From a virus: 64,000 nt of DNA. Positions 24,294-54,066 of this stretch are shown piece after piece. Position numbers and translations under genes: made by a program. The DNA lies in the IMG/VR virus record IMGVR_UViG_3300036826_000567, positions 34,898-98,897 of that record. One strand, 5' to 3'. Below the pieces are notes generated by a model that worked only from the letters and a program-made list of their open reading frames with translations, was not told where the DNA came from and searched no databases. Numbering within the stretch: position 1 is the first letter of the stretch; each line of letters opens with the position of its first letter.

Positions 24294-24308
24294 CGCTGGA
24301 GGTGTGGT

Positions 24309-24512: not shown

Positions 24513-24527
24513 CCCTGGAGGTGGTCT

Positions 24528-24734: not shown

Positions 24735-24749
24735 TTCTGGAGGTCTCTG

Positions 24750-24980: not shown

Positions 24981-24995
24981 CCCTGGAGGTATGCT

Positions 24996-25235: not shown

Positions 25236-25238
25236 GAG

Positions 25239-36544: not shown

Positions 36545-39080
36545 ACATGGCAGTGCTCTGCCATCCTTTGCCCAGCATCTGCCCTACGATATGCCGATTG
36601 ACCTGGAGAACGGGATTATCCTGCTGCAGACGCCGCAGAGTCCGAAGCCGCGCTTTAGTCTGGGCTGTACCTGGTCGGCGGTCCCGGTCAACATTCAATG
36701 CCTCGATGAGGAGGAATGCCTGGCGCTTGGCCGACATCATGAGCAGCTCCTGCGCGGCATGCCGATTGGGTCGGCGGTGCAGACCATTATGACGATCTTG
36801 CCATCCACACAGATGCCTACCTGGGAAGCAGAACGCGCTGGGTTGCCCGAGAGTCAAATGCTCGCGGTCCAACGGCAGGCGATTGCCGAGGGCCTGCCGC
36901 ATAGCGCTGGGACCATGAAGGCGCGGCTGCGGGCGATCCCCCATCTCGTGACGTTGCGCTGGCCGCTGGCCTCGCTCGACCCTGAGTTGCCCACGATCCT
37001 GAAAACCTTACTGAGTCGGCCCCAGTCGTCGAGTTGGGCCTGTCAGGCGCAGTTGGCGGGCTCCCTGGCGCATGCCCACCAGTATTTTCTTGGTCTCCAG
37101 GATGCGATGGAAGGCACCTTGAAGGGGTTAGGGCATGACGTGACACGCTTGGATGTCGAAGCGCTGGGGTACGCGGTGGTCAAGGCACTTGATCCGATGG
37201 ATATGGCGGCCTGTCCCCCACGACTGATTCCTGAGCATCCCTTGCGCGGCCAGGTGCTGGCCATGCCCGAAGCGGAAAACATTGCGGGCGGCTGGCGCTT
37301 TGGCTATGGGCTTCCCTCCGGGGAGTTTGTCGAGCAATATCGCCATCAGCTCTTGAGCCTGCATCAAGTCCCGTACCGGACCTATCCTGGCATGCTCTCG
37401 GCCCCGCGTGCGCCCAAGGAAAGTAAGCCCATGGCCCTGTGGGACGCCTCCGAACGCCCGGTGACGGTCGTCGTCAATGCTGCGGTGGTTGAGCCCGCTG
37501 CCGAAGACTCGCGTCTCTTGCAAAAGTCCCTCCTCGCGGGTTTCCAGGCGAAGATCAGTAAGAAGAATCAGACGATCAAGGAGAATGTGGACAAGGTGCT
37601 CGAAGACCACATGATGTCAGGCTCCCAGACGGGATGGGCGCGGATTCATCTGGTCGCCTGGAGCAAGCCCGAGGAAGAACAGCGTGTGGTCGAACAGGTG
37701 CGCCGCAGTCTGCATCACTTCCGGCTTGCCTTTGCTCCTGAACCAACGCTGGGATCGACCCTCGCCTTGCAGGCCTTGCCGCTGGGGTTTGATCCGGACT
37801 GGCCCCCCGAGTGGGCCCTGAATCGGGCGCGCCGCTTTGACTCGCTGGAGCAGCTGAGCCACCTCCTCACGCTCTATGGTGGGCCGCAGGGCACGAAGCG
37901 GCATAGCATTCCGTACGTCAATATGTGTGGCGAAGGGATCGGCTTTAATCCCTTCGATAACCCGCTCAACCCCCATTTCAACATCATCGCCACATCGGGA
38001 GGCGGGAAGACGTTCGAGGTCAATCGCATTCTCAACCATATCATGCCGCTTGGGGCGATTCCCGTCGTCCTCGACCCTCTCCACAACTATCGGGCTGCTT
38101 GTGAATATCATGAGGGGGAACTCATTGTTCTCAATGCGAACAACCCGATCTTTATTAATCCCTTCTATGGCCCGCTGGACCATGCGCATGTGGATGCCCT
38201 GGCGGCGGGCCTCGGCGAGATGGCGGGGGGGGGGACGGACCGCCTGTCTTGGACGCAGTTTACCGTGCTGGGTCGTGCCCTTACGTACTTTGCGCATCAT
38301 TGGGACCTGCCCACCCGGGGCGAACCCATCCTCCAAGATTTCGTTGACGAGGTACTGGAAACAGGGGCCTTTGCCCCGGACAATGACGAGGCCCGTCTGA
38401 TTGCCAAAGACCTCTCCCTCAAATTGAGCCTGTTTTATGGCGATGGCATGTATGCCGGGTTTGTCAATGGTCGTAACAGTTTCACCCTGACCAAAAACCT
38501 CACCGTGATTGAGTTTGGGGAGTTGAATAATCAACACCTCCAGGGGACGTTGTTCTTCTTCATCTTCAACCTGGTCACCCAACGCTTCAAGAATCCAGCC
38601 TTGCGCCGCATCTGGAAATGCATTTTTGGCGATGAGCTCTGGAAGCTCCTCAAGTACCAATCAACGGCGAATGTCATGGAGGAAGTGATCCGGACTTACC
38701 GCAACTTTCGGGCGAGCGCCTGCTTTTTGTCGCAGCGGGCCGAAGACTGGAATAGCCCAGTGGGCCAGGTGATCAAGGGGATTGCGGAAAGCAATTTGTT
38801 CCTCAAGCAAGGCTCCGGGGAGCTGCCGTTGGTCAAAAAGCTGTTCGATCTCAGTGACGCGGAAGAAGACCTCTTTCAGTATGTGGGCAAATATGACACG
38901 TTCAACTCGGGCTTTCTCCGACTGGTCGACAAGAAAGGCGGTATCGTCCGCATGATTCCGAATGCCCTTGATTTCCTCTTGGCAGCCCAGACGCCTGAGA
39001 TGCAGGAGCGTCGGGATCACCTTGCCACGCTGGGTGATCGGCCCTTGTGGGAACGGATTGCGGAGGCTGTCTATGTCTGA
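36525..39080 (+). CDS. traC: TraC / VirB4 ATPase
   Basis: Walker A ATSGGGKT; INPF; Walker B FGDELW; RTYR..SQ; 851 aa. Confidence 0.93.
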   Translation: MALLRPRHGSALPSFAQHLPYDMPIDLENGIILLQTPQSPKPRFSLGCTWSAVPVNIQCLDEEECLALGRHHEQLLRGMPIGSAVQTIMTILPSTQMPTWEAERAGLPESQMLAVQRQAIAEGLPHSAGTMKARLRAIPHLVTLRWPLASLDPELPTILKTLLSRPQSSSWACQAQLAGSLAHAHQYFLGLQDAMEGTLKGLGHDVTRLDVEALGYAVVKALDPMDMAACPPRLIPEHPLRGQVLAMPEAENIAGGWRFGYGLPSGEFVEQYRHQLLSLHQVPYRTYPGMLSAPRAPKESKPMALWDASERPVTVVVNAAVVEPAAEDSRLLQKSLLAGFQAKISKKNQTIKENVDKVLEDHMMSGSQTGWARIHLVAWSKPEEEQRVVEQVRRSLHHFRLAFAPEPTLGSTLALQALPLGFDPDWPPEWALNRARRFDSLEQLSHLLTLYGGPQGTKRHSIPYVNMCGEGIGFNPFDNPLNPHFNIIATSGGGKTFEVNRILNHIMPLGAIPVVLDPLHNYRAACEYHEGELIVLNANNPIFINPFYGPLDHAHVDALAAGLGEMAGGGTDRLSWTQFTVLGRALTYFAHHWDLPTRGEPILQDFVDEVLETGAFAPDNDEARLIAKDLSLKLSLFYGDGMYAGFVNGRNSFTLTKNLTVIEFGELNNQHLQGTLFFFIFNLVTQRFKNPALRRIWKCIFGDELWKLLKYQSTANVMEEVIRTYRNFRASACFLSQRAEDWNSPVGQVIKGIAESNLFLKQGSGELPLVKKLFDLSDAEEDLFQYVGKYDTFNSGFLRLVDKKGGIVRMIPNALDFLLAAQTPEMQERRDHLATLGDRPLWERIAEAVYV

Positions 39081-39546
39081 TTTCAAGCTCTTTCAACTCG
39101 CCGCGATGGTCACTGGCCTGGTGCTGTTATGGCAGGTGCTGGCCTGGATCGCCAGGTCGCCGCAGGACCGTTGGGTGCAGTTAGCGACGATCGCTGAACA
39201 AGAACACCTCCAGTCCACACCGCCGCAGGCCCTGCTGGAGCAAGCCCGCTGGCTCCTCACGGCCCGGCTCCTGCGGCTTCGCGGGCTGAGCGTGGTGCTG
39301 GGTGTCGCACTGTTGATCGGTGCGGCCGAGGGTCTGGGCTGGCGCCGGACCGATGCGCGTGGGGGCTTCCGGTTTAGCCTGTGGGTCTGTGGCATCATCC
39401 TCTTTGTGGTGTTGGTGGGAGCACTGGCATTCTCGCTGGTGATGCCCTGGGCACTCCCGCTGACGTGGCAGGTGAGCGCTGGATTGGCGCTGTATGTGGG
39501 ACTGATGGCCTATTGCTGTGCGGCAGGACTGCCGCATCTGTCGTGA
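39073..39546 (+). CDS. ICE-type integral membrane protein (DUF4400-like)
   Basis: Four TM helices; 'LIGAAEGLGWRR' pattern. Confidence 0.45.
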   Translation: MSDFKLFQLAAMVTGLVLLWQVLAWIARSPQDRWVQLATIAEQEHLQSTPPQALLEQARWLLTARLLRLRGLSVVLGVALLIGAAEGLGWRRTDARGGFRFSLWVCGIILFVVLVGALAFSLVMPWALPLTWQVSAGLALYVGLMAYCCAAGLPHLS

Positions 39547-39549
39547 AAG

Positions 39550-40818
39550 GTGGCCCTGTCTATGACGTTACATAAGACCCTCTGCTATGGCCTCGCTGGC
39601 TACCTCTGGCTTGCGCCGCTGGCGGCGAGCGCAGAATGGTTTGATAATGCTCGCAATGCCATCAATATCAATGCCCAGCAGTCCGACTATGGCGGGGCCT
39701 CGCTGCATGCGGGCATCAATCTGCGCACCGGCCATAGCACCACGACGCTCATGCGCGGTGAGGCCGGGATTGGCGGTGGCTGTGGCGCCTTTAACTTCGT
39801 GGGCTCGTTCAAAGAGGCGATGGAAGCGGTTCCCGACGTTATTAAGACCATCGCCGTGCAGTTCATCTCCTCGCTGCCGATGGTCATTGTCTGTAGCCTC
39901 CGGCCGATCCTCTGTGATGTGGCCAAGCACATCCAGCAATACATTAATTTTGTCCTGCAATCCAAGTATGCGCAGTGTCAGAGCGCCACCAACGCGGCGA
40001 TGTATGTGGGCCTGCGCATCCGGGGCGATCAGGTGTCCAAGTGCCTGGTGCAGCAGCAAGAGCAAGGGGCCACCCTGAACGCGGCGATGGAGACGTGTAA
40101 CAACAGTCCCTTTAGCCTCACCGGGCCGGATGGACAGCCGTATCGCGAGTTCAACCTCATTCAGAAGAGTCTCGAGTTTGCCGGGGCGTCGGACGAGACG
40201 AAAGCGGTCGCCAAAGACCTCCTCGGGGATATTACGCTGCGCGCGGGCAATAGCCTCGGGATCAATAGCACACAGTCTCCCGATGCGGTGCGTGGCAAAT
40301 TTGAAGCCTACCGGGATAAATATGACACGGCGCTCCGCACGGTGACGGACCAATATGTCGATGGGCAGGTCTCGAATGATGCGCTCCGTGCGGCCTCGAT
40401 TCCGGACAAGCCGTTGCCGATCCTTGCGGTGCAAGCGCTCGCCGCTGCCAAACAAGATCCCCGTGCCTATGAGGCACATATCTCCCGGCTCAGTACCGCC
40501 AGTGCCCTGAGTCAGCTCACGGTGGACTGCAACGAGCTGGAAGCTAAACTGTTTCAGGCGATGAACAGCAGTGAGCACCTGGGCAAGGAAGAACGTGAGG
40601 CGATGGAGCGGCAGTTGCAGGCGGTGCGCCTCGCGATTGCCGGCCTGAATGCCCAGGCCGAGATCCAGAATAAATACTATGACCCGGCCATCACGACGCT
40701 GATGACGGGCTATCAGGCGATGATGGACCGGGCCACGGCAGCGGGCCTCTCGGCCCCGGCGGTCACCGTGCCGCAACCGCGCTATGGCACGCAGTCGGCG
40801 CTGGGATACTCGCGATGA
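39550..40818 (+). CDS. traH: TraH-like / PFL_4711-like conjugative protein
   Basis: Signal peptide; GGGCGAFNFVGSF; SSLP..C..P.LC; C-terminal coiled coil. Confidence 0.65.
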   Translation: MALSMTLHKTLCYGLAGYLWLAPLAASAEWFDNARNAININAQQSDYGGASLHAGINLRTGHSTTTLMRGEAGIGGGCGAFNFVGSFKEAMEAVPDVIKTIAVQFISSLPMVIVCSLRPILCDVAKHIQQYINFVLQSKYAQCQSATNAAMYVGLRIRGDQVSKCLVQQQEQGATLNAAMETCNNSPFSLTGPDGQPYREFNLIQKSLEFAGASDETKAVAKDLLGDITLRAGNSLGINSTQSPDAVRGKFEAYRDKYDTALRTVTDQYVDGQVSNDALRAASIPDKPLPILAVQALAAAKQDPRAYEAHISRLSTASALSQLTVDCNELEAKLFQAMNSSEHLGKEEREAMERQLQAVRLAIAGLNAQAEIQNKYYDPAITTLMTGYQAMMDRATAAGLSAPAVTVPQPRYGTQSALGYSR

Positions 40819-42350
40819 TTGACTACTATGTGATGTCCTTTCCCGAAATGATTGGGTTGTTTCAGGGCCTGGAACTGCAAGCCATGTTGCGGACATGGCT
40901 CCCCTATCTGCCCTATCTGTTTCTGGTAGTGGGGGCCTTGATTCTGACCACACGAGCGAGCACGCAGGGAACGGTGTGGGCGTGGGTGCGTTTGGGGCTC
41001 TATGTCTTCTGGGGCTTCCTGCTTATTGCCCTGTTCTGGCCGGAAGTGAGTCCCTTTGGACGGGCGAAGCTCCTCAGTCCGTCGCAGATCGCCTCCTATC
41101 CGGCCAGTCAAGACCCCCAGGCACAAATGGTCACGGCGGGCGATACGCAGGAAGTCAGCAATCGCCCGGTGCTCGAAACACCAGGGTTCAAACTCATCCT
41201 GGGCTATCTGATTGATACCCCGCTCGGCTTTGCGCGCGCCCTCAACCCCAATACCCACCAGGTCTTTCGCCCCATGCAGTCGATTGCCTGGTATCTCGGC
41301 CTGGAGCTGACCGCGGAAGTGACGCGGAGTCTCGATGACTGGATTCAGGGCTGTTACAAGCCGGTCATGACCACGGATCAGGAGTTTCAGGACGCGATTA
41401 CCAGCAAGGACCTGATGCCATGGGGTGAGGGACCGGTGGCGCGTGCTCTGGCGACGAGGCAAACGGTGCCGGGGTCCTCAACCGGCGGACGGTATCTGCG
41501 CACCACACGGCCTCTCGGCACGCTCTTCCTGGCCAATCCCGACAGCCCCAGTACCGTGCGGTGTGATGTCTACCTCCGCGCCGTCGAACTGGATGTGCAG
41601 CGCTGGCTCTTTGAGACCAAATCGCCTGCCGGTGCCCCCCTGTCCCAGGTCTTTCAGGAAGACTTTGGGCGCACCGTGGATGAGCAAGCCAAGTGGCTGA
41701 TCTACCGTGACATCCTCAAGCTGATTGATCGTCCGTCTATCGTTCCTGGCCTGGGCGGCATCTATGCCGGCCTCTCCAGCGGCAATAGCCTGCGCGGGGC
41801 CGTGACGGGTGCGGTTACGGGGGCTATAGGCGGGGCGGCATACGGCGGTTACGGGGCCGGTGCAGGGGCTCTTGTGGGGGGATTGATCGGCTTCTGGAAT
41901 GCCGGCCAGGGCCAATTTGCTGATGTCTTGCGAACCATTACCTGGACGGTGGGCATGGCCATGGTGTTTATCTGGTCGGCTCCTGAGATTTTTGGCACGG
42001 CCTTGCTGATCCTGATCGGGCTCTTTCCGATCCCCTTCCTCTTCATGTTGACCCCATTTGCCGGCTTCAAGTCCGTCTTCATGTATTTCCTGACACTGCT
42101 CTATGTGTGCTGCTCGCCGCTCTGGTTTGCGCTGATTGACCTTCGGATGCGCGCCGCTATGGCAACAGCACCGCAGAGCCAAGACGCGATGCTGGGGCTG
42201 CTCAACTGGGCACCGCAGCAAGCCGCTGGTGCGCGGGCCGTGGTGGTTGGGCTCTTTGTCGTGTCTGTCGTCGGGGGGATTATGTTCTTTTCACTGGCCC
42301 GTGGGGTGGCTGGCAATATCGCTGGTGCGCTCCGTGCGTCACAAGGCTAG
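40815..42350 (+). CDS. traG: TraG N-terminal-like (VirB6-like) membrane protein
   Basis: N-terminal TMs, periplasmic domain with conserved Cys (GCYKP, VRCD), C-terminal TM bundle. Confidence 0.7.
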   Translation: MIDYYVMSFPEMIGLFQGLELQAMLRTWLPYLPYLFLVVGALILTTRASTQGTVWAWVRLGLYVFWGFLLIALFWPEVSPFGRAKLLSPSQIASYPASQDPQAQMVTAGDTQEVSNRPVLETPGFKLILGYLIDTPLGFARALNPNTHQVFRPMQSIAWYLGLELTAEVTRSLDDWIQGCYKPVMTTDQEFQDAITSKDLMPWGEGPVARALATRQTVPGSSTGGRYLRTTRPLGTLFLANPDSPSTVRCDVYLRAVELDVQRWLFETKSPAGAPLSQVFQEDFGRTVDEQAKWLIYRDILKLIDRPSIVPGLGGIYAGLSSGNSLRGAVTGAVTGAIGGAAYGGYGAGAGALVGGLIGFWNAGQGQFADVLRTITWTVGMAMVFIWSAPEIFGTALLILIGLFPIPFLFMLTPFAGFKSVFMYFLTLLYVCCSPLWFALIDLRMRAAMATAPQSQDAMLGLLNWAPQQAAGARAVVVGLFVVSVVGGIMFFSLARGVAGNIAGALRASQG

Positions 42351-42361
42351 AAAGGCTGATT

Positions 42362-42889
42362 ATGGAAAACACCGTGGTTATCACCGTCATTCTGCTGGTG
42401 CTGAGTTGTCTCATGGTCGCTCTCTGGGGCTCACGGAAAGAGTGGGCCTCGCGGCGCTGCCCCTTCTGCCGAGTCTATGTGTCCGTGCAGGCGACGGTAT
42501 GCTGGCGCTGCACCCGGGAGCTTCCGCCTCGCGGCACGAAGTATGCTATGCCCGTTCTTGTGGCTGGACTGCTCCTTGCTGGGACTGCCCAGGCACAATT
42601 CTTGAGCCCGACCGCGTGTGCTCGGATGAGCTTCTTTGCCGAAGAGGACTGCTCACCGCTGCCGGTCATCGCCCCTGTCCCGCCTCCTCCTGCCGCCGCC
42701 CCCTTGTTCACGAAGGAAACAGTTTCCCCGTACACTGCACCTGAACTCTTGGCCCTCTCGAATGACCGGACTCTCGAGAATGCCCGCTTCTATGTCCGGC
42801 GGCAGATCGAGCGCAACAACGCCACTGAGGAAGTGACGCGGTTGGTGCAACAAGCCTGGGACGAAGTAGGACGGCCCCATGTGCCGTAA
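42362..42889 (+). CDS. Protein with zinc ribbon and TraF-N-terminus-like helix (possible internal start at 42548)
   Basis: CPFC..CWRC; second signal-like stretch MPVLVAGLLLAGTAQA; 'RTLENARFYVRRQ' recalls the TraF PT.EN..Y..Q motif; no thioredoxin domain. Confidence 0.4.
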   Translation: MENTVVITVILLVLSCLMVALWGSRKEWASRRCPFCRVYVSVQATVCWRCTRELPPRGTKYAMPVLVAGLLLAGTAQAQFLSPTACARMSFFAEEDCSPLPVIAPVPPPPAAAPLFTKETVSPYTAPELLALSNDRTLENARFYVRRQIERNNATEEVTRLVQQAWDEVGRPHVP

Positions 42890-44159
42890 CGCGCTGCTGC
42901 TCGTCCTGTGTTTCGTCTCCTGGGCCGAGGCTGGTGACCATCTCCTATCATGGAAATATCAGCTAGACCTCCAACCCCAGGTGAAATATGTCCTCAACAT
43001 CGTGTCGATGAGAGGCGATAAACCCTTCATGGAGGAGCGCTGGATTGACCCCCTCTCGCGCCAAGAGTGCAGCCAATATACGATCGAGGGCGCAACGGCT
43101 GAGACCCAGTGTGCCGCGATCTGTCTGGACCCCGGTGACTATAGCCTGACGCTCTATGCTACGGCGGGCGATGTGCGCAGCCCGCGTAGCGTGCCCGTAC
43201 TCGATGTGGACCTGAGTACGGAGACCCCGTGCGCCGGTCCACCGCCTGGCCAGAAAACCCCGTTTCCAACCGTACCGGTGATCGCCGGCGTTACCGTGGG
43301 CGGAGGCGCCGCAGCCTATGCCGCCTTGCAAGCCCGTGACGAGGTTGCCCCGCTGCTTACCGGCATGGTCAACATGGGCTGCGTGACGTGGAAAGTGCTG
43401 GGTCCCTGTTTCTGCGGCCCAGCGGCCTGCGTGCAGGTGGAATACTGGGAGCCGGGCTGGCTCGTCGAGACCTCTATCCGCCCTGGCGATACGTCGTTAC
43501 CAGCGCCCTTTGGGTCGCTCGTGTCCGCAGCCATTGCCGCCGTCGCCCCCACCATCGGTGCCAGTGGGGGTGCTGGGGTCGCCACCAGCAGCAATATCCG
43601 CTTTGGCGATGTCCATGTGATTAGCCTGCCCAACCTCTTCGGCGGTCCCTGTACCGGCTGCGTGCCCTCCGGGGCCCCAGCCTTGAACTATGCGAGCGAG
43701 CTGGATGCGCCGAGTTGGCGGGTCGTTCCCCCCGTCGTCGGTCCGCTGGCGTTAGCGCTGCAGATTGGTTTCTGGGGTCCGCTCTATCCCCGCGTGGGGC
43801 ATGTGATCCATAGCTCGCCAGTGATTGCGAGCGGACTCCAGGCGGTGCGCGGGCTCAATATTGCGTTTCAGCCGGTGGGCGTGAACCCTCCGCCGGATGT
43901 CCATGTGGTGACCGCCCCGACCGATGGCACAAGTTTCTGTTGCCAACTCGCCGCCCCTCGCCAGACCCCGTGCTTCACTGCAGGGAGCCCGCCACCCTTC
44001 TTTGAACTCGGCTCAGGGAGTGTGTCCGGGAAGTACGCGTGGATTTTTTGGCGACGCAGGACGTGTTGTCTGCCCGCGCCGCCGGTGCCCTGTGGCATTG
44101 CCGCCCTCGGGTTGACGCAACCGCCGCAGAACGCCTGTCTGCCTCTTTCCACCCCGTAG
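42879..44159 (+). CDS. traU: TraU-like protein with extra N-terminal domain
   Basis: C..WKVLGPCFC..VEYWEP..VET; YASELD; WGPLYPR.G; YAWIFWRRRTCC. Confidence 0.85.
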   Translation: MCRNALLLVLCFVSWAEAGDHLLSWKYQLDLQPQVKYVLNIVSMRGDKPFMEERWIDPLSRQECSQYTIEGATAETQCAAICLDPGDYSLTLYATAGDVRSPRSVPVLDVDLSTETPCAGPPPGQKTPFPTVPVIAGVTVGGGAAAYAALQARDEVAPLLTGMVNMGCVTWKVLGPCFCGPAACVQVEYWEPGWLVETSIRPGDTSLPAPFGSLVSAAIAAVAPTIGASGGAGVATSSNIRFGDVHVISLPNLFGGPCTGCVPSGAPALNYASELDAPSWRVVPPVVGPLALALQIGFWGPLYPRVGHVIHSSPVIASGLQAVRGLNIAFQPVGVNPPPDVHVVTAPTDGTSFCCQLAAPRQTPCFTAGSPPPFFELGSGSVSGKYAWIFWRRRTCCLPAPPVPCGIAALGLTQPPQNACLPLSTP

Positions 44160-44390: not shown

Positions 44391-44795
44391 ATGACTGATC
44401 CTCATGAGAAAGGATGCTCCATGGTTGCTGCGCTCAAGGTGAAACGTGTATCGACCCCGAAATGGGACCGCTGGCAGTCGACGGCGGTGGCGAAAAAGTA
44501 CCTGTCAGTCGAGATGCGCCAGTCGGGCTATACCATCGTACGTGTGTCTCCCGCCTGCCGTGAGGCGTTTGTCGATACGGCGGCGCTGATGCGGGCCTAT
44601 GGCGAATGGGCCGGTCGTGAGCAGATGCCCACGATCATCGATCACGCCTTCAAGACCTGGTGGCAATGGTCGTATCGCCTGTATGCCGTGCTCTACCGCA
44701 TGCTGGACAAGCGGTCTGGGGCAGTGCCGCCGATCCCGGCCAGCCTGGATGCCTTTGTCTCCCATGGGGAAGCCTTCTATGCCGACAAAAGTTAA
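44391..44795 (+). CDS. Hypothetical protein
   Basis: Operonic; coupled to neighbours. Confidence 0.5.
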   Translation: MTDPHEKGCSMVAALKVKRVSTPKWDRWQSTAVAKKYLSVEMRQSGYTIVRVSPACREAFVDTAALMRAYGEWAGREQMPTIIDHAFKTWWQWSYRLYAVLYRMLDKRSGAVPPIPASLDAFVSHGEAFYADKS

Positions 44796-45036
44796 GGCGC
44801 GGACGGACGTGGTCGTATGTTGTCTGGCGGCTGGGCTGTTCGCGGTCCTCTCCGCCGTGGAGTTTCCTGCGGCCTATGCCGCCCCTGCGCATACCTGGCT
44901 GGCACACGGCCTGGCGGGGCTCTGGCTCGGCGTCTGCTGTGTGCGGGTGCAGCATACTAGTCGCCAGCGCTGGCATTTGAGCCACAATACACCGGTGGCG
45001 ATGTCGGCCACTGCGGTGCGTAAACTGTATGACTGA
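44779..45036 (+). CDS. Two-TM protein equivalent to the membrane anchor of TraD
   Basis: Two TM helices; ends RKLYD* one base out of frame with the TraD start. Confidence 0.55.
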   Translation: MPTKVKARTDVVVCCLAAGLFAVLSAVEFPAAYAAPAHTWLAHGLAGLWLGVCCVRVQHTSRQRWHLSHNTPVAMSATAVRKLYD

Positions 45037-46582
45037 CGCCAGCGGACGCCTCTATTTTGGGCAGGGATTTCGGTGGCACCAGCAGCACACGCAGCAGATC
45101 GAATCCCTCATTTTCCATGACGGGTATGTGCCCACCGCCACGGATAGCCAGGGGGGGTGCCCGGCCTTTGCCGCCGTTGGCGCACGTGAGGCGCGTCCCG
45201 TCTGGCTGGATGACAGCCGTCTTGAAGGGCACGTCGGCGTCGTGAGCACGACCGGCTCGGGCAAAACGTCGCTCTTCAAGATGCTCATCCTCGGCAGTAT
45301 TCCGCAGCGGGGGCCAACCATCGTGATTGATCCCAAGTTCGACAGACCCGATGATCTTTGCCTGCCTACGGCACTTGCTGCGTATCGGGCCGGCAAACGT
45401 TTTGTGCTCATCATGCCGGCCTTCTATCGCCATTCCGCCCATATGAACGTCCTGGATACCGCGGAAGAGGCTCCAGAAGTCGTCGCTCGCATCCAGGCGC
45501 TGCTCCCTGGTGGAGGCGGGAGCGTTGGTGAGCCCTTCTTTAACGAGTTCGCGCTGGGCTTGATCCAGCGCATTGCCACCGCACAGCAACGCCTGCGGCA
45601 GCCGTGGACGCTGGAAGGTGTGTACCGGGCGGCGCTCTATCCCCAGGCTCTCCGTCAACTTCTCAGTGACTATCTCGGCGCGCTCGGGTTCGCTGGTCCC
45701 TTGCGGGACGCGACCCAAGCCTATCAGGCCAGCGGTCTCCAGGACCTGGTGGCCGATGGGCTCATTAATGATCAGCGGCGTGATCCTGACCATTTTCAGC
45801 GCATTTCGACCTCCCTTGATCCGGCCTTTCGTGGCGTCATTGGGCAACCCTATGGCGATCTCTTCAGCGATCTGACGACGGATGTGACCTGGACCAACAT
45901 CGTCCGCGAAGAGATGGTGGTCTATATCGGGCTCAGTAGTCTCATCCTGCAAGAGATGGCCAACCGCATCGGGCGCATTATCCTGCAAGACCTGGTGGGC
46001 TACCTGGGGCGGCGTTCGACGCGGGAGCCCATCGCCTCCGCTGCGACCATTCGCGTCTTTATCGATGAGTTTGGGGATATCATGTATCCCCTCTTTACCA
46101 ACGCGCTCAATAAGGGGCGCAGTCCCAAAGCCCGCTTCTTCCTGGCCATGCAAAGCCTGGCGGACCCGGAATCCGCCTCCAGCCCGGTCGAAGCGAAGCG
46201 CGTCCTGGACAATCTCGGGACGCAAATCTGGATGCGGCAAGCCAGCGCTGAGACGGCGGAGATCGTCTCCCGGGGCTTCGGACTGTGTCGCGTCATGTTG
46301 CCAGATACCCGCGTCGGGCAGGGGATGGGAGGCCAGGGTGGCCTCAGTGCCAATGCCTCACGCGGTCTGACGCCTGAATCTGCCTCGCTGCTTGACCTGA
46401 CCTGGTTCACGCAATTACCCAAAGGCCACGCCTTCATGCGGCTCGATGGGGAGCCCTGGTATCTGCAAGTGCCCTATGTCACGCCCTTCACCCGGCGCGA
46501 TATGCTCGGTCTCGACGCCTCATTGCTGGGGATGTCGACGGTTCTTCAACTGCCTCAAGGAAAGGAATCTGCCCATGTCTAG
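45029..46582 (+). CDS. traD: Type IV coupling protein TraD (SXT/PFGI-1-like)
   Basis: LYFGQGFRW..HTQ; Walker A STTGSGKT; VIDPK; Walker B VFIDEF; LNKGR; Q..AD. Confidence 0.92.
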   Translation: MTDASGRLYFGQGFRWHQQHTQQIESLIFHDGYVPTATDSQGGCPAFAAVGAREARPVWLDDSRLEGHVGVVSTTGSGKTSLFKMLILGSIPQRGPTIVIDPKFDRPDDLCLPTALAAYRAGKRFVLIMPAFYRHSAHMNVLDTAEEAPEVVARIQALLPGGGGSVGEPFFNEFALGLIQRIATAQQRLRQPWTLEGVYRAALYPQALRQLLSDYLGALGFAGPLRDATQAYQASGLQDLVADGLINDQRRDPDHFQRISTSLDPAFRGVIGQPYGDLFSDLTTDVTWTNIVREEMVVYIGLSSLILQEMANRIGRIILQDLVGYLGRRSTREPIASAATIRVFIDEFGDIMYPLFTNALNKGRSPKARFFLAMQSLADPESASSPVEAKRVLDNLGTQIWMRQASAETAEIVSRGFGLCRVMLPDTRVGQGMGGQGGLSANASRGLTPESASLLDLTWFTQLPKGHAFMRLDGEPWYLQVPYVTPFTRRDMLGLDASLLGMSTVLQLPQGKESAHV

Positions 46583-46952
46583 GACCATCAGCCTCCTGCT
46601 CGCCCTCACCGTGTTTGGCTGTGCCACGCTTGGTCGGCGTGTGAACGAAGGACAACTCACAGATTTTGTCCCTGGAGAAACCACCTATTTTGAGGTGGTC
46701 GCAACCCTCGGCCTCCCGACCAATGAGCTGCGCAATCCTGATGGCACACGCCAGATTGTGTATGCCTATCAGCATGACCAGATCAATCCCGAAGCGGTGA
46801 TTCCCGGCGTCGGGATGCTGTTTAAGGAGCGCAGCACCGAGTATGCGCAGACCACCATCTACTTTGATCAGCAGAACCGCTACCTCTCTTACTCTCAAAG
46901 TCAGGGCCGCACCGACTATGGGCGCGGGCCGATTGCCGGTGGCCGCCAATGA
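46575..46952 (+). CDS. SmpA/OmlA(BamE)-like lipoprotein
   Basis: Lipobox VFGC; G.TT..EVVATLGLP..DGTR..YAY..IYFD. Confidence 0.65.
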   Translation: MSRTISLLLALTVFGCATLGRRVNEGQLTDFVPGETTYFEVVATLGLPTNELRNPDGTRQIVYAYQHDQINPEAVIPGVGMLFKERSTEYAQTTIYFDQQNRYLSYSQSQGRTDYGRGPIAGGRQ

Positions 46953-47290
46953 AGAAAGGATCTGCAATGCCGCTCTTATCCTCCGCATTCTTGGTCGCAC
47001 TCTTATGGGCGCAGCATGTTCCCATGACGTGTACGCCTGCTGGCGCATGCCAGATGGATGGCACTCCGACCCTGACGGTTGTGGCCAACTTTGAGAGCTG
47101 GGAACTGTGCCAAGATGCTCAACAGAGGTGGACACAGGCAGCGCATGTTGGCCTGCTTGCCCGCTATCATCCCCAGGTCGGGGAGCCTTTTCAGATGATC
47201 GACACGCTCTATCGTTGTGAGGAGCCCGGGGATGAGCCCCCTCGCGTGCAGGGACTTACCTTCACGTTTCCTCCCAAGCGACCTTCCTAG
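46949..47290 (+). CDS. Secreted hypothetical protein
   Basis: Hydrophobic leader; Cys pairs. Confidence 0.5.
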   Translation: MKKGSAMPLLSSAFLVALLWAQHVPMTCTPAGACQMDGTPTLTVVANFESWELCQDAQQRWTQAAHVGLLARYHPQVGEPFQMIDTLYRCEEPGDEPPRVQGLTFTFPPKRPS

Positions 47291-47341: not shown

Positions 47342-47367
47342 GCCTCCCGGCGATTTGGGAGGTTTTT
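47342..47367 (+). terminator. Intrinsic terminator ending the tra operon
   Basis: CCTCCC-loop-GGGAGG followed by TTTTT. Confidence 0.6.
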
Positions 47368-47390
47368 GTCCCCAAGACAAGGAGTCGTTC

Positions 47391-47603
47391 GTGAAGAGAA
47401 TGACCATCGAAGTGCCAGAAGACGTCTGCGTGGCCATTGAGGACGAGGCCGTGCGTGAGTTCCGCACGCCGCCTCAGCAAGCCAGTTATCTCCTCCTGAT
47501 CTGGGCGCGTGAGCAACAGACGAGGCGCCAGAAGACCGAAAAAGCCGCGCCTGGGGGAATGCGGGCGCGGGGTGACGAGGTGCTAAACGGGGCAGCGGTC
47601 TAG
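47391..47603 (+). CDS. Ribbon-helix-helix (Arc-like) protein, possible relaxosome accessory
   Basis: KRMTIEVPEDVCVAIEDEA..FRT..QQA.YLL; AAGGAG RBS. Confidence 0.55.
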   Translation: MKRMTIEVPEDVCVAIEDEAVREFRTPPQQASYLLLIWAREQQTRRQKTEKAAPGGMRARGDEVLNGAAV

Positions 47604-47795
47604 CCCTTCTCCTTCCTCTCCCACGCCGGGCCGGTGTCCCCTTTCCGGCCCCCCCTCTCTCGCATTTTCCCCAGCCGGTTCTCAGGATGACGCCACCTGT
47701 CCGCATCGTCATGCAGGCGGCAATAACAAGGCAGGTGAGCAGCCAAGGACGCCTGATCGCGGCTGGCGGCGAGACAATCGTGTGGTAAAACGATC

Positions 47796-47825
47796 TTGAC
47801 TTTTGTGCCGCAAACAGGGTACATT
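47796..47825 (+). promoter_or_regulatory. Sigma70-type promoter
   Basis: TTGACT-N18-TACATT immediately upstream of the structured region. Confidence 0.55.
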
Positions 47826-47831
47826 GTCGCA

Positions 47832-48245
47832 TCTGATGTGCTGGGGACACATCCTGCTTCGGCAGTGCACGCGGGAGCGTGCGGAGTCATCACAGCTGCT
47901 ACCCATACTCCTAGCAGCAGCAGTACCGACCGCATCGTTCAGGTGCGGCGGGTGTCGCGGGGATGCAAGAGGCCCCTTGGAGCAGCAGCTCCACGACGCC
48001 GATCGAACGCATCGGCGGTAGACACGTTTTCCCATGTTCGCCACAACTGAAGAGTGGTCTGTGCCATCGCGCATGGCTACGTCCGCGTCAGGGATTGGGC
48101 ACCCGCCACTGCGGCTAGCACCGATGGTCCGACGTGTGTGGACGGCATGTCGTCTCAGGTACGAGCTGTCGAGCCGCCGTACGTGAGACACCCACATGAC
48201 TGGCACAGGGTCAGTCGTGATGTCGAGGACTCAGCCCAGATCAAG
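47832..48245 (+). ncRNA. Candidate large structured RNA or ssDNA element (unassigned)
   Basis: More than ten consecutive stem-loops, including CTGC-TTCG-GCAG and GCACGC-GGGA-GCGTGC; long-range helix 47947-47956/48098-48107. Confidence 0.55.
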
Positions 48246-48266
48246 GATCATAGAGGAGAATCTACT

Positions 48267-48800
48267 ATGACAGGGCACCAGCAGACAGGGCTAGCGCAGG
48301 TGAAGGCGCTGGTGGTCGCAGTGAGAGGGTTTCTGGAAGGGACACGCGTGCGGGCGGCCTGGATGGAGCCGGCATGCTATGTGTTGTTTGGCGTCGCGAT
48401 GATGGCGCTGGCAACACAGGCGCATTTTCTGTGGGCCGTGATCCCGCTCGGCGGGATTGGGGTGATCTGTGGGATTGGGCGCCACTTGGAGACCCTGGAA
48501 TGGCAGGAGCAGGCGGAGGCGCTGGAAGCGGACACGATCTGCTGGCGCTATGGGATGGAGGACGGAACCGCCCAGCAAGTGCTGTTCGAGTGGCAGGAAT
48601 TTCTCGAGCAGGGGGAAGACGCGTGTGATCCGTTTGAGGGGCTACCACCGCAAGGCCAGGCAGCCAGGGGCAGTGCAACTGCCGCGTCGATGGCAGCGGA
48701 GCTCAACGTTCCGCACGAGTCATCGATGGTGGGCGAGCAGCCAGGGGATGACGTCTGGGGCCATTATTGGTTCTGCGACGAAGTCCCGGATCTGGACTAA
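48267..48800 (+). CDS. Hypothetical membrane protein with acidic tail
   Basis: AGAGGAG RBS; two TM helices. Confidence 0.55.
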   Translation: MTGHQQTGLAQVKALVVAVRGFLEGTRVRAAWMEPACYVLFGVAMMALATQAHFLWAVIPLGGIGVICGIGRHLETLEWQEQAEALEADTICWRYGMEDGTAQQVLFEWQEFLEQGEDACDPFEGLPPQGQAARGSATAASMAAELNVPHESSMVGEQPGDDVWGHYWFCDEVPDLD

Positions 48801-49053
48801 GCCACCAGCAGGACGCTGAAGGGCACGCAGAGGGGGTGGGAGCACTCGGCCCCCTCGGCGTGGAGAGCGACGAGTGTTGACATAGAGTCGGTTGGACGGT
48901 TCATGCGGACTGAAGCCGGCCCTCGAAAAAGAGCGCGGGTCGTCAGCCTACGGGGGTCAGTCCAGATCATCACACATCCCGAGGGAAGGAGACACGGGCA
49001 TGCAAGGACCGTGGGCTCAGGGAGTAGCACTCAACACATGGAAGGCAGGTGTG

Positions 49054-49944
49054 ATGCATACGTTACTGTGGGAACTGAAGGCATTATGTGATCGCGTGCA
49101 TGAGGGGAGTTACCACTATCGCCAGAAGCGCAGTGAGGTGCTGTTGCTGGCGGCGCGGCAACTGACGACGCGGGTCGAGCGTGGGGGGCTGGGGTATACG
49201 CAGATGCGGCTGGGGGATTTCGAGCGCAAGCATAGCCGCAAGCTGCTGGCGCTGTGGCAGTCGCAAGGGTTGACGGTAGAGACCCTGATGAATCGGTATG
49301 CCCATCTCCGGTGGTGGTGTGAAAAGATCGGCAAGCCGGACGTCATTCCGCCCACCAATGACTTTATCAAGGGGGAGCGCACGGGCGAGGTGGCGACGGT
49401 CTCGAAGGGGCAGCGGCTGACGCCAGAGGAACTGGAGCGGATCAGCGATCCATGGATACGGCTCTCGGTGGAATTACAGCAGGCGTTTGGGCTCAGGCGC
49501 GAAGAGGCCATCTGCATCCGGCCGCACCGGGCGGACCAGGGGGACCGGCTCTGGCTGAAGGGGAGCTGGTGCAAAGGGGGCCGGGAGCGGACGATCCCGA
49601 TTGAAACCGCCGAGCAGCGGGCGCTCCTCGACCGGGCCAAGGCGTTTGTGCGCTGGAAGGACGCCAGCCTGATTCCGCCAGGGAAGCAGAGCTATCAACA
49701 GATCAATCGCTATACGTATGTGATCAAGCAGGCGGGGCTGGCGGCGCTGCATGGGCTGCGCCACGGGCATTTTCAGGAGAAGTATGCCGCACTCACGGGG
49801 CATCCGGTGCCGGTCGAGGGTGGACCCTCGCGCCGAGAGATGACCGAGGACGAGCGCCAGCGGGATAGCGAGGTACGCCAGCAGCTCGCCGAGGAACTCG
49901 GGCATGGGCGGGCACGGGTGACCTCACACTATTTTGGACGCTAG
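49054..49944 (+). CDS. Tyrosine-recombinase-fold protein (Phage_int_SAM_2 + Integrase_1 type)
   Basis: LKALC..EGS..R..L..Q..LGY..KH..W..T..NR..LRWW.EKIGK N-domain; FGLRREEA, KGGRER, HGLRH, ELGHGR..TSHY catalytic set. Confidence 0.88.
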   Translation: MHTLLWELKALCDRVHEGSYHYRQKRSEVLLLAARQLTTRVERGGLGYTQMRLGDFERKHSRKLLALWQSQGLTVETLMNRYAHLRWWCEKIGKPDVIPPTNDFIKGERTGEVATVSKGQRLTPEELERISDPWIRLSVELQQAFGLRREEAICIRPHRADQGDRLWLKGSWCKGGRERTIPIETAEQRALLDRAKAFVRWKDASLIPPGKQSYQQINRYTYVIKQAGLAALHGLRHGHFQEKYAALTGHPVPVEGGPSRREMTEDERQRDSEVRQQLAEELGHGRARVTSHYFGR

Positions 49945-49952
49945 GGAGCGGT

Positions 49953-50312
49953 ATGCCGCCGCGGGGGTATCGCAGTCCACAGTATCAGGCCTATATCCAG
50001 TCGCCACCGTGGCGGGCGTTGGCGGCCCAGGTGCGCCGGCGCGATGGCTACCGCTGTCGTCAGTGTGGGGCTCGAGGGCGATTGGATGTGCACCACCTGA
50101 CCTATGTGCGGTTCGGGCATGAACGTTTGGAGGATCTGCTCACGCTCTGCCGTCCGTGCCATGACGCGGCCCATGACCGTGTACCAGTGTCCGCGCCGAC
50201 GGGCCAAGGCCAGGGTTGTCTGCTGGCCGTGCTGCTCAGTCTGTGCTTCATCGTCATCCTCATCGTGCTCGCACATTTTCACCGCTTTGACGTCCTCCCC
50301 CCACTAAAGTAG
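49953..50312 (+). CDS. HNH endonuclease with C-terminal TM helix (3' end altered by IS)
   Basis: YI.SP.W..RRDGYRCRQCG..LDVHHLTY..DLLTLCRPCH; hydrophobic tail. Confidence 0.8.
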   Translation: MPPRGYRSPQYQAYIQSPPWRALAAQVRRRDGYRCRQCGARGRLDVHHLTYVRFGHERLEDLLTLCRPCHDAAHDRVPVSAPTGQGQGCLLAVLLSLCFIVILIVLAHFHRFDVLPPLK

Positions 50313-51350
50313 GGGGATTCCCGCAGGCGTAGCACGTCCGCTACGGAGTAAGATGTTATGTGCAGCATTGGTATCGCGATCATGCAGAACACCGCAACTG
50401 GTACAACACCATACCCTCACGTCCAGGCAACTCAGTCCACTCGGGCCGGTGCGACTACCACAGGCCGAGCAAGTTACCGTGGACCCGGATTCATTCACAT
50501 CGCAATATTCCACGCCAAGCCTCATGGCTTTGTATACAAGCATGGTACGAAACATGGACCAACCCGCATCATAGATCGATTTCGCCATGCGGGTCTTGGC
50601 AAGCTTCGAACTGGAGATATTGCCCACGGCAATCAACCGTGCCCGCTGCGCAATAGTGGTCGAGGTTTTATGTGCCCAGTCTTTGCGGCAATTGGCGATC
50701 TTGGCATGGATCGCGCTAACACGCCGCTTCTTATGGGCTCTCTGTACCATGGCCAAAGCATCTTCATAGGTACGCGTCAGATTCTTTCTCGAGTATTTGA
50801 CGCCATCGGAGCAGGCAATCAAGTCTTTCAAACCAAGGTCAAGACCAATGTCAGCGGTCGAAGTCGAGGGCTGTGGCAGCTCAACTTCACACTGGATGTT
50901 GACGTACCAGCGTCCACGTGCGTCTTGCGTAAAGCTCCCAGTCTTCGGTGTGCCTTCGATCGGACGCGACGCCCAAAAGCGATAGCGGCGTTTCAGGTAC
51001 GTCAAGCTGTCGTCGTCCAGCTTGAGAAAGCGCAGCTTGAAGGGCACCCAGCCGAGCGAGCGCTTCCGACTACGCCACTTCAGCCGTCGCTTGCGACTGG
51101 CATAGCGCTTCCCCACATATTCCCGACAAATCTCGGAGATGGTGTCACTGTGCAGGCCAAGCTCCGCACTGGCACCAGCGGTCAAATTAATCAAGTCTAC
51201 CGCCGTCAAGAAGCGCTTATCACGGCGCAGCGCAAGCATGCTGACTTCATTACACCAGTTCCAGACAGTATTGACAGCCCAGCTCAGCCGCCTGAGGTGT
51301 TTGCCTTTGGTCGCATCTTTGATGCGGTAGCGAAACGTCAGTATCGACAT
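50304..51350 (-). CDS. tnpB: TnpB with rearranged RuvC-II
   Basis: GLDLG; IAVGN in place of the canonical Glu; alternative Glu in VNES; CSACG..CTSCG; DRDTNAA. Confidence 0.93.
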   Translation of the reverse strand: MSILTFRYRIKDATKGKHLRRLSWAVNTVWNWCNEVSMLALRRDKRFLTAVDLINLTAGASAELGLHSDTISEICREYVGKRYASRKRRLKWRSRKRSLGWVPFKLRFLKLDDDSLTYLKRRYRFWASRPIEGTPKTGSFTQDARGRWYVNIQCEVELPQPSTSTADIGLDLGLKDLIACSDGVKYSRKNLTRTYEDALAMVQRAHKKRRVSAIHAKIANCRKDWAHKTSTTIAQRARLIAVGNISSSKLAKTRMAKSIYDAGWSMFRTMLVYKAMRLGVEYCDVNESGSTVTCSACGSRTGPSGLSCLDVRVWCCTSCGVLHDRDTNAAHNILLRSGRATPAGIPLL

Positions 51351-51496: not shown

Positions 51497-51609
51497 AGCG
51501 CATATTGTAACACATAATGCGCTACATTTCAACCATGTTGCCCTTGTGGGGCAAGGCGCATTCCTCCCCGGCCTTTAGTCCGGGGAGGAATGCACCGTTA
51601 GGAGCGCCT

Positions 51610-53139
51610 ATGTCCCGACTCGTATGCTCGGCTTATGTCCTCGCGTTGCTCCTTCTGACGGCTTCCGCTCCCTCGGCGGCGACGTTCTACCTCAATCCCG
51701 CGACCGGCGCGGACAGCAACCCTGGCACCCAGGCGGCCCCGTGGAAGACGCTCCGCAAGCTCATGGCCAGTGTCGGCCCTGGCGATACCGTGACCATCCA
51801 GCCCGGCAGCTATACGCAGGACCAGTGGGTGCCGGGCGGGGGCTATGAGCTCTGGACCGAGGCGCAGGGGCGGGGCCACCCGGGGGCGCCGATTACGATC
51901 CAGGCCGCGACCCCTGGCAGCGTCACCTTCAACGGGCAGCAAAACACGTACTGGGTCTACCTGTATAGTACCGGGGCGCCGTACTACCTCGTGTTCAAAA
52001 ACCTCACGTTCCAGAACTATCGCGGCGTCGCCCTCGGCATTGGCGGGAGTTACGTCGCGGTGCTCACCTGTACGTTTGAAAACTTCTCGCCGCAGTTGAC
52101 GGCTCCGATCGCCATCGGGGACGCGCATCACGTGATTGCGCAGGGGAACCGCATGAAGAATATCGGTGATCCGCGCCTGGGCGGCGCGCCGCCACCGGAT
52201 AGTCAGCATTTCATCTATGTCGCCGAGAATGTCCAACACGTGGTGATCGACCGCAATGTCATGGAAGGCAACTCTGGCTTCGGCATCCACTTCTGGGGCC
52301 ATAGCAACTTTGGCGTGACGACGCAGCAGAGCATCGTGCGGCGCAACGTGGTGGTCAATGCGTGGGATACGACGATGATCCTGGCCGGCACCAACTACCG
52401 CAACACGTATGTCTATAACAATACGTTCTACCAGGAGCGCGTGCCCTTTCCGGCGGTGAACCAGGACATGGCCCTGACGATGCTCTCCTGGCACCTGGGG
52501 ACACAGCTCAGCCATACGCGGGTGGTGAATAACATCGGGCGCGGCTATGTGCAGTACGGCGCCGTGTGGTCCGATGACAATAGCCGGTTTGGCGGCGATC
52601 TCCTGCTTGACTACAACCTCTGGCAAAACCTGGCGGCCCCCGCGCAGCTCTATACCTGGAGTGCCGCCGCCTATGACCAGCAGACCTTTCGCGGGGCACT
52701 CGGCTATGAGCCGCACAGCCTGGCCGTCGATCCGCGCTTCGGGGACGAGACGGGCCGCGATTTCACGCTGCAGCCGGGCTCCCCCGCCATCGACGCGGGG
52801 ACGTTCCTCACGACGACGGTGGGGAGTGGTAGTGGCACGACCCTCCCGGTCCAGGACGCGGGGTATTTCCACGATGGCTATGGGTTGGTGGCGGGCGACG
52901 TGGTGCAGCTGGAAGGGGGCCCGGCGGCGCAGGTGACCGCGGTCGACTACGACCGCAATGTGCTGACGCTGGCCACGGCGGTGACGTGGCGGGCCGGCCA
53001 GGGCGTGGCGCAGCGCTACACGGGGAAAGCGCCCGACATGGGAGCCAAGGAATTTGGCCTCAGCAGTGACGATGACGCGCCCCTGCCCCCGGTCCTGCCC
53101 GCGCCCTATGACCTGCGGCTGGGCAAGATCGTGCGCTGA
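51610..53139 (+). CDS. Secreted beta-helix protein, paralogue of the N-terminal half of 6566-9160
   Basis: Signal peptide; shared PWKTL, PITIQA, GSG.T.L.V.DAGYFHDG.GL.AGD and PDMGA.E motifs. Confidence 0.85.
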   Translation: MSRLVCSAYVLALLLLTASAPSAATFYLNPATGADSNPGTQAAPWKTLRKLMASVGPGDTVTIQPGSYTQDQWVPGGGYELWTEAQGRGHPGAPITIQAATPGSVTFNGQQNTYWVYLYSTGAPYYLVFKNLTFQNYRGVALGIGGSYVAVLTCTFENFSPQLTAPIAIGDAHHVIAQGNRMKNIGDPRLGGAPPPDSQHFIYVAENVQHVVIDRNVMEGNSGFGIHFWGHSNFGVTTQQSIVRRNVVVNAWDTTMILAGTNYRNTYVYNNTFYQERVPFPAVNQDMALTMLSWHLGTQLSHTRVVNNIGRGYVQYGAVWSDDNSRFGGDLLLDYNLWQNLAAPAQLYTWSAAAYDQQTFRGALGYEPHSLAVDPRFGDETGRDFTLQPGSPAIDAGTFLTTTVGSGSGTTLPVQDAGYFHDGYGLVAGDVVQLEGGPAAQVTAVDYDRNVLTLATAVTWRAGQGVAQRYTGKAPDMGAKEFGLSSDDDAPLPPVLPAPYDLRLGKIVR

Positions 53140-53487: not shown

Positions 53488-54066
53488 CTAGTCCACCGGT
53501 GAGGCGGTGGCTTTGGCCTGGTTGAGGGCCTTGCTAATCGTCTGCCGCGAGCAGTGCAGCTCTTTGGCCATGTCGGTAATCGTCCTGTGGTCCCGCTCCA
53601 TCCCATAGACGCGGTATAAGTCCTGCTGGCTCAGGCGTGGGGGTCTGCCGCCTTTTCTGCCCCTGGCACGGGCAGCCTGGAGTCCGGCCTGTGTCCGTTC
53701 AATAATCAGATTGCGCTCCAACTCGGCAAACGCGGCGAGGATGGTAAAGAAGCATTTGCCAGCGGGCGTGGTCGTATCGATGTTATCCTGGAGACTCTTG
53801 AGCCCAACACCCTTGTGCGCAAGCTCCTCGGCAAACTCAATCAGTCCCTTCACGGTGCGTCCGAGGCGGTCCAGCTTCCAGACCACGAGGGTATGGGGGC
53901 CAGCTTGACAGCACCGGACAGCCGCGGCCAGTTGGGGGCGTTCCATGCGGGCACCAGACGCCACTTCTTCATAGACATCGACGCAGCCGGCTTGATAGAG
54001 GGCGTCCTTTTGGAGGTTCAAAGATTGGTCCTCGGTACTCACGCGTGCATACCCTATGAGGTTCAT
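53488..54066 (-). CDS. Small serine recombinase (resolvase/invertase)
   Basis: IGYARVSTEDQ, LVVWKLDRLGR, AELERNLIIERT..GL.AARARGRKGGRPP; C-terminal HTH. Confidence 0.95.
   Translation of the reverse strand: MNLIGYARVSTEDQSLNLQKDALYQAGCVDVYEEVASGARMERPQLAAAVRCCQAGPHTLVVWKLDRLGRTVKGLIEFAEELAHKGVGLKSLQDNIDTTTPAGKCFFTILAAFAELERNLIIERTQAGLQAARARGRKGGRPPRLSQQDLYRVYGMERDHRTITDMAKELHCSRQTISKALNQAKATASPVD

Follow-up and report, generated by a model that had tools for sequence, protein, structure and literature searches.

Using a 64-kb window of viral DNA (bases 34898-98897 of a 98,897-bp IMG/VR record that is classed as linear and has a CheckV completeness of 88%), we identify a tyrosine recombinase gene near traD that most likely encodes an MpsA-type (MOB_M) relaxase, and which would carry out DNA processing for the adjacent F/G-like T4SS. 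We favor this reading over the others, with real room for doubt, and it draws on four lines of support: kinship with MpsA, an intact catalytic set and fold, no canonical relaxase found on the element, and a recurrent linkage of the family with genes for type IV coupling proteins (T4CPs). In the mechanism we propose, the recombinase would bind a site within the non-coding DNA that separates its gene from the tra operon (47.6-49.05 kb), and Tyr293 would attack one strand to form a covalent 3′-phosphotyrosyl link. The SXT-type TraD would then hand the nucleoprotein to the T4SS, and in the recipient the DNA would be rejoined by the same chemistry in reverse.

Should the relaxase reading be true, many genes described as “integrase domain-containing” or “phage integrase N-terminal domain-containing” (PF12834/PF12835) would be relaxases, on a scale of more than 1368 homologues (E≤1e-3) and of matches in 605 of 5426 complete E. 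coli genomes. Mobility would in that case be underestimated by standard typing tools, e.g., in 46 orphan-T4CP plasmids that are typed as non-mobilizable and nearly all of which carry the gene. It would also supply the missing DNA-processing enzyme for a T4SS located on a tailed-phage genome, and would make the idea of conjugative phages directly testable.

The recombinase protein and its kinship with MpsA

The ORF at 49054-49944 (+) encodes 296 aa with the C-terminus TSHYFGR in the ORF list of the window, and the open frame around it extends to 48892-49944. Its Pfam matches are marginal, with 26.5 bits to PF12835 (Integrase_1; gathering cut-off 23) and 23.9 bits to PF12834 (Phage_int_SAM_2; gathering cut-off 22), and these are the only two; no arm-binding domain was detected, whereas the arm-type integrases of relatives match PF13356. 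At E≤1e-3, the protein collection has more than 1368 homologues with both domains, the closest being of equal length with 43-48% identity. An alignment of 31 homologues demonstrated that R148, K174, H233, R236, H237, H284, and Y293 are invariant, with the catalytic set R148-K174-H233-R236-H284-Y293 intact. The AlphaFold2 model (pLDDT 93.9) is a two-domain tyrosine recombinase with a core-binding and a catalytic domain, and Foldseek matched it across both domains to IntI4 (2a3v), XerH (5jjv), lambda Int, Tn1549 Int, and Cre (260-346 columns, probability 1.00). NCBIfam has no model matching the protein, and a sequence search found no solved structure for it. By fold and catalytic residues, the protein is a member of the tyrosine recombinase superfamily (DNA_BRE_C). 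The first-pass annotation had described a protein of ~296 aa with the full R-K-H-R-H-Y set and the Tyr at the extreme C-terminus; Pfam, the 31-sequence alignment, and AlphaFold2/Foldseek bear this out, and given the homologues, the invariant residues, and the two-domain model, that observation is therefore correct.

An alternative in-frame start (48983-49002), consisting of an ATG at 49000 preceded at a distance of 8 nt by a strong Shine-Dalgarno sequence (GGAAGGAGA), would add 18 residues; homologues begin at the position equivalent to 49054. An inverted repeat (48968-48980 / 49044-49056) flanks both candidate starts.

The same early annotation had suggested an unrecognised relaxase class. 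This class is already named: tyrosine-recombinase-like relaxases are MOB_M, and include TcpM of pCW3, MobK of pIGRK (PMC8152469), for which nicking is Tyr-dependent, and MpsA (PMC6414798), with the window protein joining them through its MpsA-type kinship. MpsA of Salmonella genomic island 1 (SGI1), together with MpsB, is essential for mobilisation, the oriT lies 5′ of the gene, and SGI1 carries its own Int besides MpsA (PMC6414798). A 2026 preprint connects MOB_M with MPF_G elements and describes it as very common in chromosomes, with a separate integrase nearby in 96% of cases (10.64898/2026.01.13.699239).

Our search of 301 Enterobacterales genomes with a profile of the recombinase family identified 321-aa ORFs in three genomes (E 2e-35 to 5e-39), in which R162, H247, R250, H251, and Y319 coincide exactly with the published MpsA numbering (PMC6414798). 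Each of these ORFs is followed by a small ORF, and one has a TraG_N gene 4 kb away, an arrangement resembling that of SGI1-like islands; their numbering, length, and TraG_N neighbor suggest that they are MpsA orthologues. The one that we scanned against Pfam (L108) scores 38.6 bits to PF12835, aligns with the window protein at 31% identity (E 5e-18), and has the motifs FGLRxEE, KGGRxRxxPI, HGxRH, and ELGHGRxxxTxxYxG in common with it. The profile matches, the PF12835 score, and the L108 alignment argue that MpsA-type proteins and the window protein form one family, and at the level of sequence the window recombinase and the MpsA-numbered proteins both belong to PF12835.

Comparison of the two systems shows likeness in the protein and differences in the setting. 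Both proteins are over the cut-off for PF12835 with a PF12834-like N-terminal domain and the same catalytic motifs; the spacing from the Arg to HxxRH is identical (85 residues), an unusually long insert precedes the C-terminal Tyr, which is 3-4 residues from the end, and both are associated with SXT/IncC-type transfer systems. However, identity is only 31% and limited to the catalytic half, and a quick ML tree places MpsA in a clade apart (SH-aLRT 99). The window protein instead pairs in that tree with its 290-aa homologue (44% identity) from the related phage IMGVR_UViG_3300026067_000001 (G003), as sisters with an SH-aLRT of 84 and both on long branches, near small-plasmid sequences. Unlike the MpsA system with its MpsB, the window gene has no MpsB-like small ORF directly downstream, with an HNH gene there instead, and this absence counts against the relaxase reading. 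SGI1 itself is a mobilisable island that carries an integrase but lacks a full T4SS; the window gene, by contrast, is found with a complete T4SS, on a phage-type genome, and with no other integrase.

TcpM and MobK provide the precedent for a tyrosine-recombinase-related catalytic domain acting as a conjugative relaxase, although MobK is likened here by description (PMC8152469). The GLRxxE, KG, HxLR, and HxR...Y motifs of TcpM align with those of the window protein family in what is a weak match (profile-sequence hhalign probability 17%, E 1.4e-3). Both lack a core-binding domain (PMC8152469) whereas the window protein has one, and its full core-binding and catalytic architecture, i.e., that of a working recombinase, is a point against a relaxase role. 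XerH/XerD, IntI4, and Cre are alike in their two-domain fold and R-K-H-R-H-Y active site, but are only 12-17% identical, and the window protein has ~25 extra residues between HxxR and the final His/Tyr; the context of its gene is one of transfer genes, not of dif, attC, or lox sites as for simple tyrosine recombinases.

The MOB_M gene layout is present in the window, with a putative oriT in the non-coding DNA, and linkage of the gene with traD is also seen in G003 and in 16 of 20 related contigs. A separate integrase nearby, another MOB_M feature, is seen in one related contig and in 35 of 85 family loci (both described below), but the PF00589 searches of this contig and of G003 found none. 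Judged from its protein and gene layout, the window gene is a further member of the MpsA/MOB_M kind, in an unusual host element.

Gene neighborhood and the search for canonical relaxases

The features around the recombinase gene are listed in Table 1. At least 11 genes of the T4SS operon are syntenic with G003 (24-47% identity), and TraD matches TIGR03743 (SXT_TraD, NCBIfam) with E 6.9e-67 and is 47% identical to TraD of G003.

Table 1. Features of the window from the T4SS operon to the HNH gene, with the basis for each assignment.
Feature	Coordinates	Strand	Basis or remark
T4SS (mating-pair formation) operon	33270-44159	+	Pfam PF03743, PF19044, PF06834; NCBIfam TraC-F-type, TraB, TIGR03756
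TraB/TrbI-like gene	34636-35892	+	Within T4SS operon
TraC/VirB4 ATPase gene	36525-39080	+	Within T4SS operon
TraU gene	42879-44159	+	Within T4SS operon
traD N-terminal transmembrane part, in other frame than main ORF	44779-45036	+	Aligns to G003 TraD
TraD type IV coupling protein, SXT/TOL subfamily-like, main ORF	45029-46582	+	PF12696, PF10412, PF02534
Lipoprotein gene after traD	46575-46952	+	Lipobox ...LTVFGC; kept in relatives
Small secreted protein gene	46949-47290	+	Signal-peptide-like N-terminus
82-aa ORF, read as RHH in the first-pass annotation	47355-47603	+	Coding-type GC3 0.71
660-bp tract without convincing ORF, from tra operon to the side of the 48264-48800 ORF	47604-48263	.	Overlapping short ORFs only
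178-aa predicted membrane protein gene	48264-48800	+	No family match (Pfam, PHROGs); absent from G003
Leader 5′ of recombinase gene	48801-49053	+	GC-rich hairpin 48824-48862; further inverted repeats (I2, I4, I5)
PF12834 + PF12835 tyrosine-recombinase-fold protein, candidate relaxase of MpsA/MOB_M family	49054-49944	+	
HNH endonuclease-like gene, 119 aa	49953-50312	+	PF01844; starts 8 nt past recombinase stop

The traD gene (44599-46582) is split over two frames, from an ATG at 44779 to a stop at 45036 and with the remainder at 45029-46582. The product of the first part aligns with residues 1-79 of G003 TraD (score 62, versus 29±5 for shuffles), and in the main frame similarity to this protein starts as early as 44984. 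The window traD therefore appears on its sequence to be frameshifted, which could reflect a sequencing error, a programmed shift, or gene decay, and which weighs against the relaxase reading.

From traD to the recombinase gene is 2.5 kb, of which 0.9 kb is non-coding. The order reported earlier for this interval, i.e., lipoprotein, secreted protein, small ORF, ORF-poor tract, and the ORF at 48264-48800, holds, but the RHH label given to the small ORF finds no match in either Pfam or PHROGs; its product is a possible relaxosome accessory factor. The secreted protein also has no Pfam or PHROG match and no homologue in G003. The lipoprotein gene is found in five metagenome loci (L149, L161, L165, L169, and L172), and its product is 38% identical to that of the G003 gene abutting the recombinase gene there. 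Downstream, the HNH gene is not a conserved partner, with its G003 homologue located elsewhere, at 1986-2609.

We regard the 660-bp tract, which contains scattered inverted and direct repeats, as a candidate oriT region, and its position agrees with the MOB_M layout (10.64898/2026.01.13.699239). The DNA fold of the 253-nt leader is overall not significant (z-score -1.2), with one strong GC hairpin at 48824-48862, and that of the G003 leader has a z-score of -2.7. A blastn-short comparison of the DNA upstream of the two recombinase genes found none conserved between the window and G003. The leader z-score and the lack of upstream DNA in common with G003 both stand against the relaxase reading.

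Our relaxase models covered the MOBP/Q, MOBF, MOBH, and MOBV types in Pfam. On the whole 98,897-bp contig (88% complete), PF03432, PF07514, and PF08751 gave no match at E≤10 and PF03389 and PF01076 gave none at E≤1, Pfam scans of about 70 contig ORFs found no relaxase domain, and all five models were without a match on G003, which is 141,598 bp long with terminal repeats and 100% complete. The earlier statement that no canonical relaxase is present is thus upheld for the MOBF/P/Q/V/H models on both genomes. Two long ORFs, at 23457-25511 (-) and 9530-11260 (+), were considered as hidden relaxases and rejected because of their implausible composition, as spurious antisense frames; the 23.6-25.6 kb stretch contains a series of small +-strand ORFs. 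As a relaxase candidate, the recombinase is the best and the only one that we found on the element, and belongs to a family linked to T4CP genes, which is as much of the first proposal as stands; an integrase or resolvase role, the two taken jointly, is a possibility of distinctly lower weight.

The first of these is that the protein is the integrase of the element, i.e., a simple tyrosine recombinase without an arm-binding domain that would serve lysogeny or ICE-type integration by recombining an attP beside its gene with an attB of the host, and for which the place beside traD would be only the end module of an ancestral ICE. We consider this unlikely, and the evidence is divided. The full two-domain recombinase fold with its catalytic set is what such an enzyme requires, and PHROGs places the protein in the general integrase family phrog_1 (E 7e-9). 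Neither the contig nor the complete G003 contains a PF00589 integrase, so that these phages, if they integrate, would have no tyrosine recombinase other than the PF12834 + PF12835 protein. The recombinase gene of G003 is preceded by a weak HTH_17 (excisionase-type) ORF and by 0.8 kb of non-coding DNA, an int-attP-xis-like picture that, like the missing PF00589 integrase, speaks against a relaxase. However, MpsA, the one member of the family for which genetics exist, acts in mobilisation, in an island with its own Int (PMC6414798), no arm-binding domain was found by Pfam, and there is no tRNA in the 64-kb window or adjoining the gene in 18 related loci. That the gene is not beside a tRNA had been pointed out in the first-pass annotation and is confirmed by our survey, but for a phage-type genome neither this nor the position away from an element boundary is a strong argument. 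The boundary point in particular carries little weight, as any int/attP pair would likewise be internal in a genome that, like this record, has been excised or packaged.

Linkage of the recombinase family with coupling protein genes

A single-sequence search of viral contigs found no related loci, and an alignment-based scan was needed. Scanning metagenome contigs with a TraD alignment, we identified 47 loci, 20 of which extend at least 1.4 kb beyond traD, and in 16 of these 20 contigs of this TraD clade a recombinase gene is located 0-3.6 kb from traD. These 16 recombinases are 41-47% identical, represent at least 12 distinct sequences, and include seven genes on the same strand as traD and nine that are convergent with it; that adjacency is kept despite inversion argues for a functional linkage between the two genes. 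In one of the contigs, L145, an arm-type PF00589 integrase is directly beside the recombinase gene, so the recombinase-family protein is not the integrase there, and the arrangement is the relaxase-plus-integrase layout of MOB_M ICEs. Four others (L148, L150, L160, and L138) contain IS elements and metabolic (host-like) genes that begin just past the recombinase gene, as at the end of an element, a position that fits an integrase and counts against a relaxase.

A distinct and unrelated VirD4-type T4CP is encoded on 46 small plasmids, all typed as non-mobilizable by MOB-suite, of which 41 are from Acinetobacter and three from Psychrobacter, with the remainder being Vibrio pSIO1 and one from Pleionea. 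At least 42 of the 45 orphan-T4CP plasmids listed (PLSDB hits H51-H95, H96-H155) contain a PF12834/PF12835 recombinase gene, with recombinase identity among these plasmids down to 45%. Our inspection of plasmid records showed that the recombinase gene is upstream of the T4CP gene and on the same strand, and that a small ORF separates the two in pSIO1 (L010, NC_006860.1, 1934-4819) and in pAS78-3 (L012). Only with a relaxase would a T4CP gene be of use on a 5-kb plasmid, and the sole candidate there is the recombinase gene. The recombinase and T4CP gene set of these small plasmids is probably an unrecognised mobilisation module. The presence of family members on replicating plasmids of 4-15 kb, where they share an operon with a T4CP gene, disfavors the integrase reading, as does L145. 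The family is tied to T4CP genes far above chance.

Plasmids also supply evidence for a third reading, in which the protein is a Cre- or ResD-like resolvase or cyclase that would keep a plasmid-prophage in monomer form, or close incoming DNA into a circle, by acting at a site in the neighboring non-coding DNA. Plasmids commonly carry the family, and of 211 with a member 127 are typed as non-mobilizable; tiny Pasteurellaceae plasmids contain only a rep gene, the family gene, and cargo, and the element itself resembles a phage-plasmid, with a tailed-phage module, its own initiator and primase-helicase, and no classical integrase. This reading leaves unexplained why T4CP genes of two unrelated clades both have the gene as a conserved neighbor, and also the homology to MpsA. 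A serine resolvase/invertase is, in addition, already present in the window at 53488-54066, and the matches in E. coli are all chromosomal: a search with the gene of a Salmonella family member gave matches in 605 of 5426 complete E. coli genomes, none of them on a plasmid, and the island copies inspected are near a P4-type integrase gene. We consider a resolvase role more doubtful still than an integrase role.

Not all of the plasmid data favor the relaxase reading, as the remaining 84 of the 211 plasmids with a family member are typed as conjugative or mobilizable, i.e., they have a canonical relaxase recognized by MOB-suite. Of the two checks proposed at first, co-occurrence with TraD/VirB4 and mutual exclusion with canonical MOB relaxases, the former finds the gene beside traD in 16 of 20 contigs, and the latter is contradicted by the 84 plasmids that have both.

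Elsewhere, family members usually occur together with a separate integrase, which favors the relaxase reading. For example, in E. coli tRNA-Asn islands with a family member, a P4-type integrase is found at the tRNA, and in 35 of 85 family loci a PF00589 gene is located about 200 bp downstream. The order in these 35 loci (L017, L018, L024, L049-L060, and others) is a PF12835 gene, a small ORF 4 nt past its stop, and the PF00589 gene; identical protein copies in six Halieaceae genera mark this set as a two-recombinase element that has moved recently (a minimal IME, or SE-like). None of the small ORFs that follow plasmid or island family members matches PF13495. Some records from these searches have unusual settings: one family match (H50) is in a scrambled stretch at an assembly end, a 473-kb Salmonella “plasmid” (L013, NZ_CP022016.1) contains chromosomal-type islands with P4-type integrases, and the end of the E. 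coli IH5 chromosome record (L098, NZ_CP168949.1, last 22 kb) is a patchwork of gene fragments and an assembly artefact.

The host element and its relative G003

A siphovirus-type module takes up the first 47 kb of the contig, with genes for a large terminase, portal, major capsid protein, tape measure, and tail, and including the tail fibre-like and beta-helix proteins at 1-9.2 kb of the window. Beyond this module are two TnpB genes, a Gp3-like protein, a methylase, a replication initiator, and a primase-helicase, followed by the T4SS operon region with its TraB/TrbI-like, TraC/VirB4, TraU, and SXT/TOL-type TraD proteins. Located 3′ of the recombinase gene are the HNH gene, the second TnpB, a beta-helix protein, a small serine recombinase, an RNA ligase, and an HTH regulator.

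G003 and the contig have in common (24-56% identity) the tail and head-tail genes, the Gp3-like gene, and the replication initiator, as well as the whole T4SS, TraD, the lipoprotein, and the recombinase. The arrangement differs, in that the recombinase and lipoprotein genes of G003 are convergent and directly abut, whereas in the window the two are on one strand and 2.1 kb apart, with three extra ORFs and 0.9 kb of non-coding DNA between them. With a tailed-phage structural module, a full F/G-like T4SS, an initiator, and a primase-helicase, both genomes are candidate conjugative phages or phage-plasmids. One further reading combines roles described above, with a single enzyme serving as both the MOB_M-type relaxase and the sole site-specific recombinase (for integration or multimer resolution), and with the contig and G003 representing a lineage of tailed phages or phage-plasmids that would conjugate their whole genome besides forming virions; the oriT and the recombination site would then be one locus. 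We judge this to be quite improbable, and retain a MOB_M-type relaxase as the preferred role.

Several observations on the element stand apart from the function of the recombinase. The two TnpB (OrfB_IS605/Cas12f-like) genes are located at 12754-13968 (+) and 50304-51350 (-), the latter directly after the recombinase-HNH pair. The serine resolvase/invertase (192 aa, - strand) has no homologue in G003 and adjoins the beta-helix (tail-fibre-like) protein at 51517-53139 (+); the two may form a host-range switch of the Gin/Cin type or else serve in resolution. Two contigs, of 103,070 bp and 107,001 bp, appear to carry homologues of TraD and of the recombinase and are probably two further such elements. 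The closest named relatives of TraD are in Candidatus Tectomicrobia MAGs, a hint at the host group.
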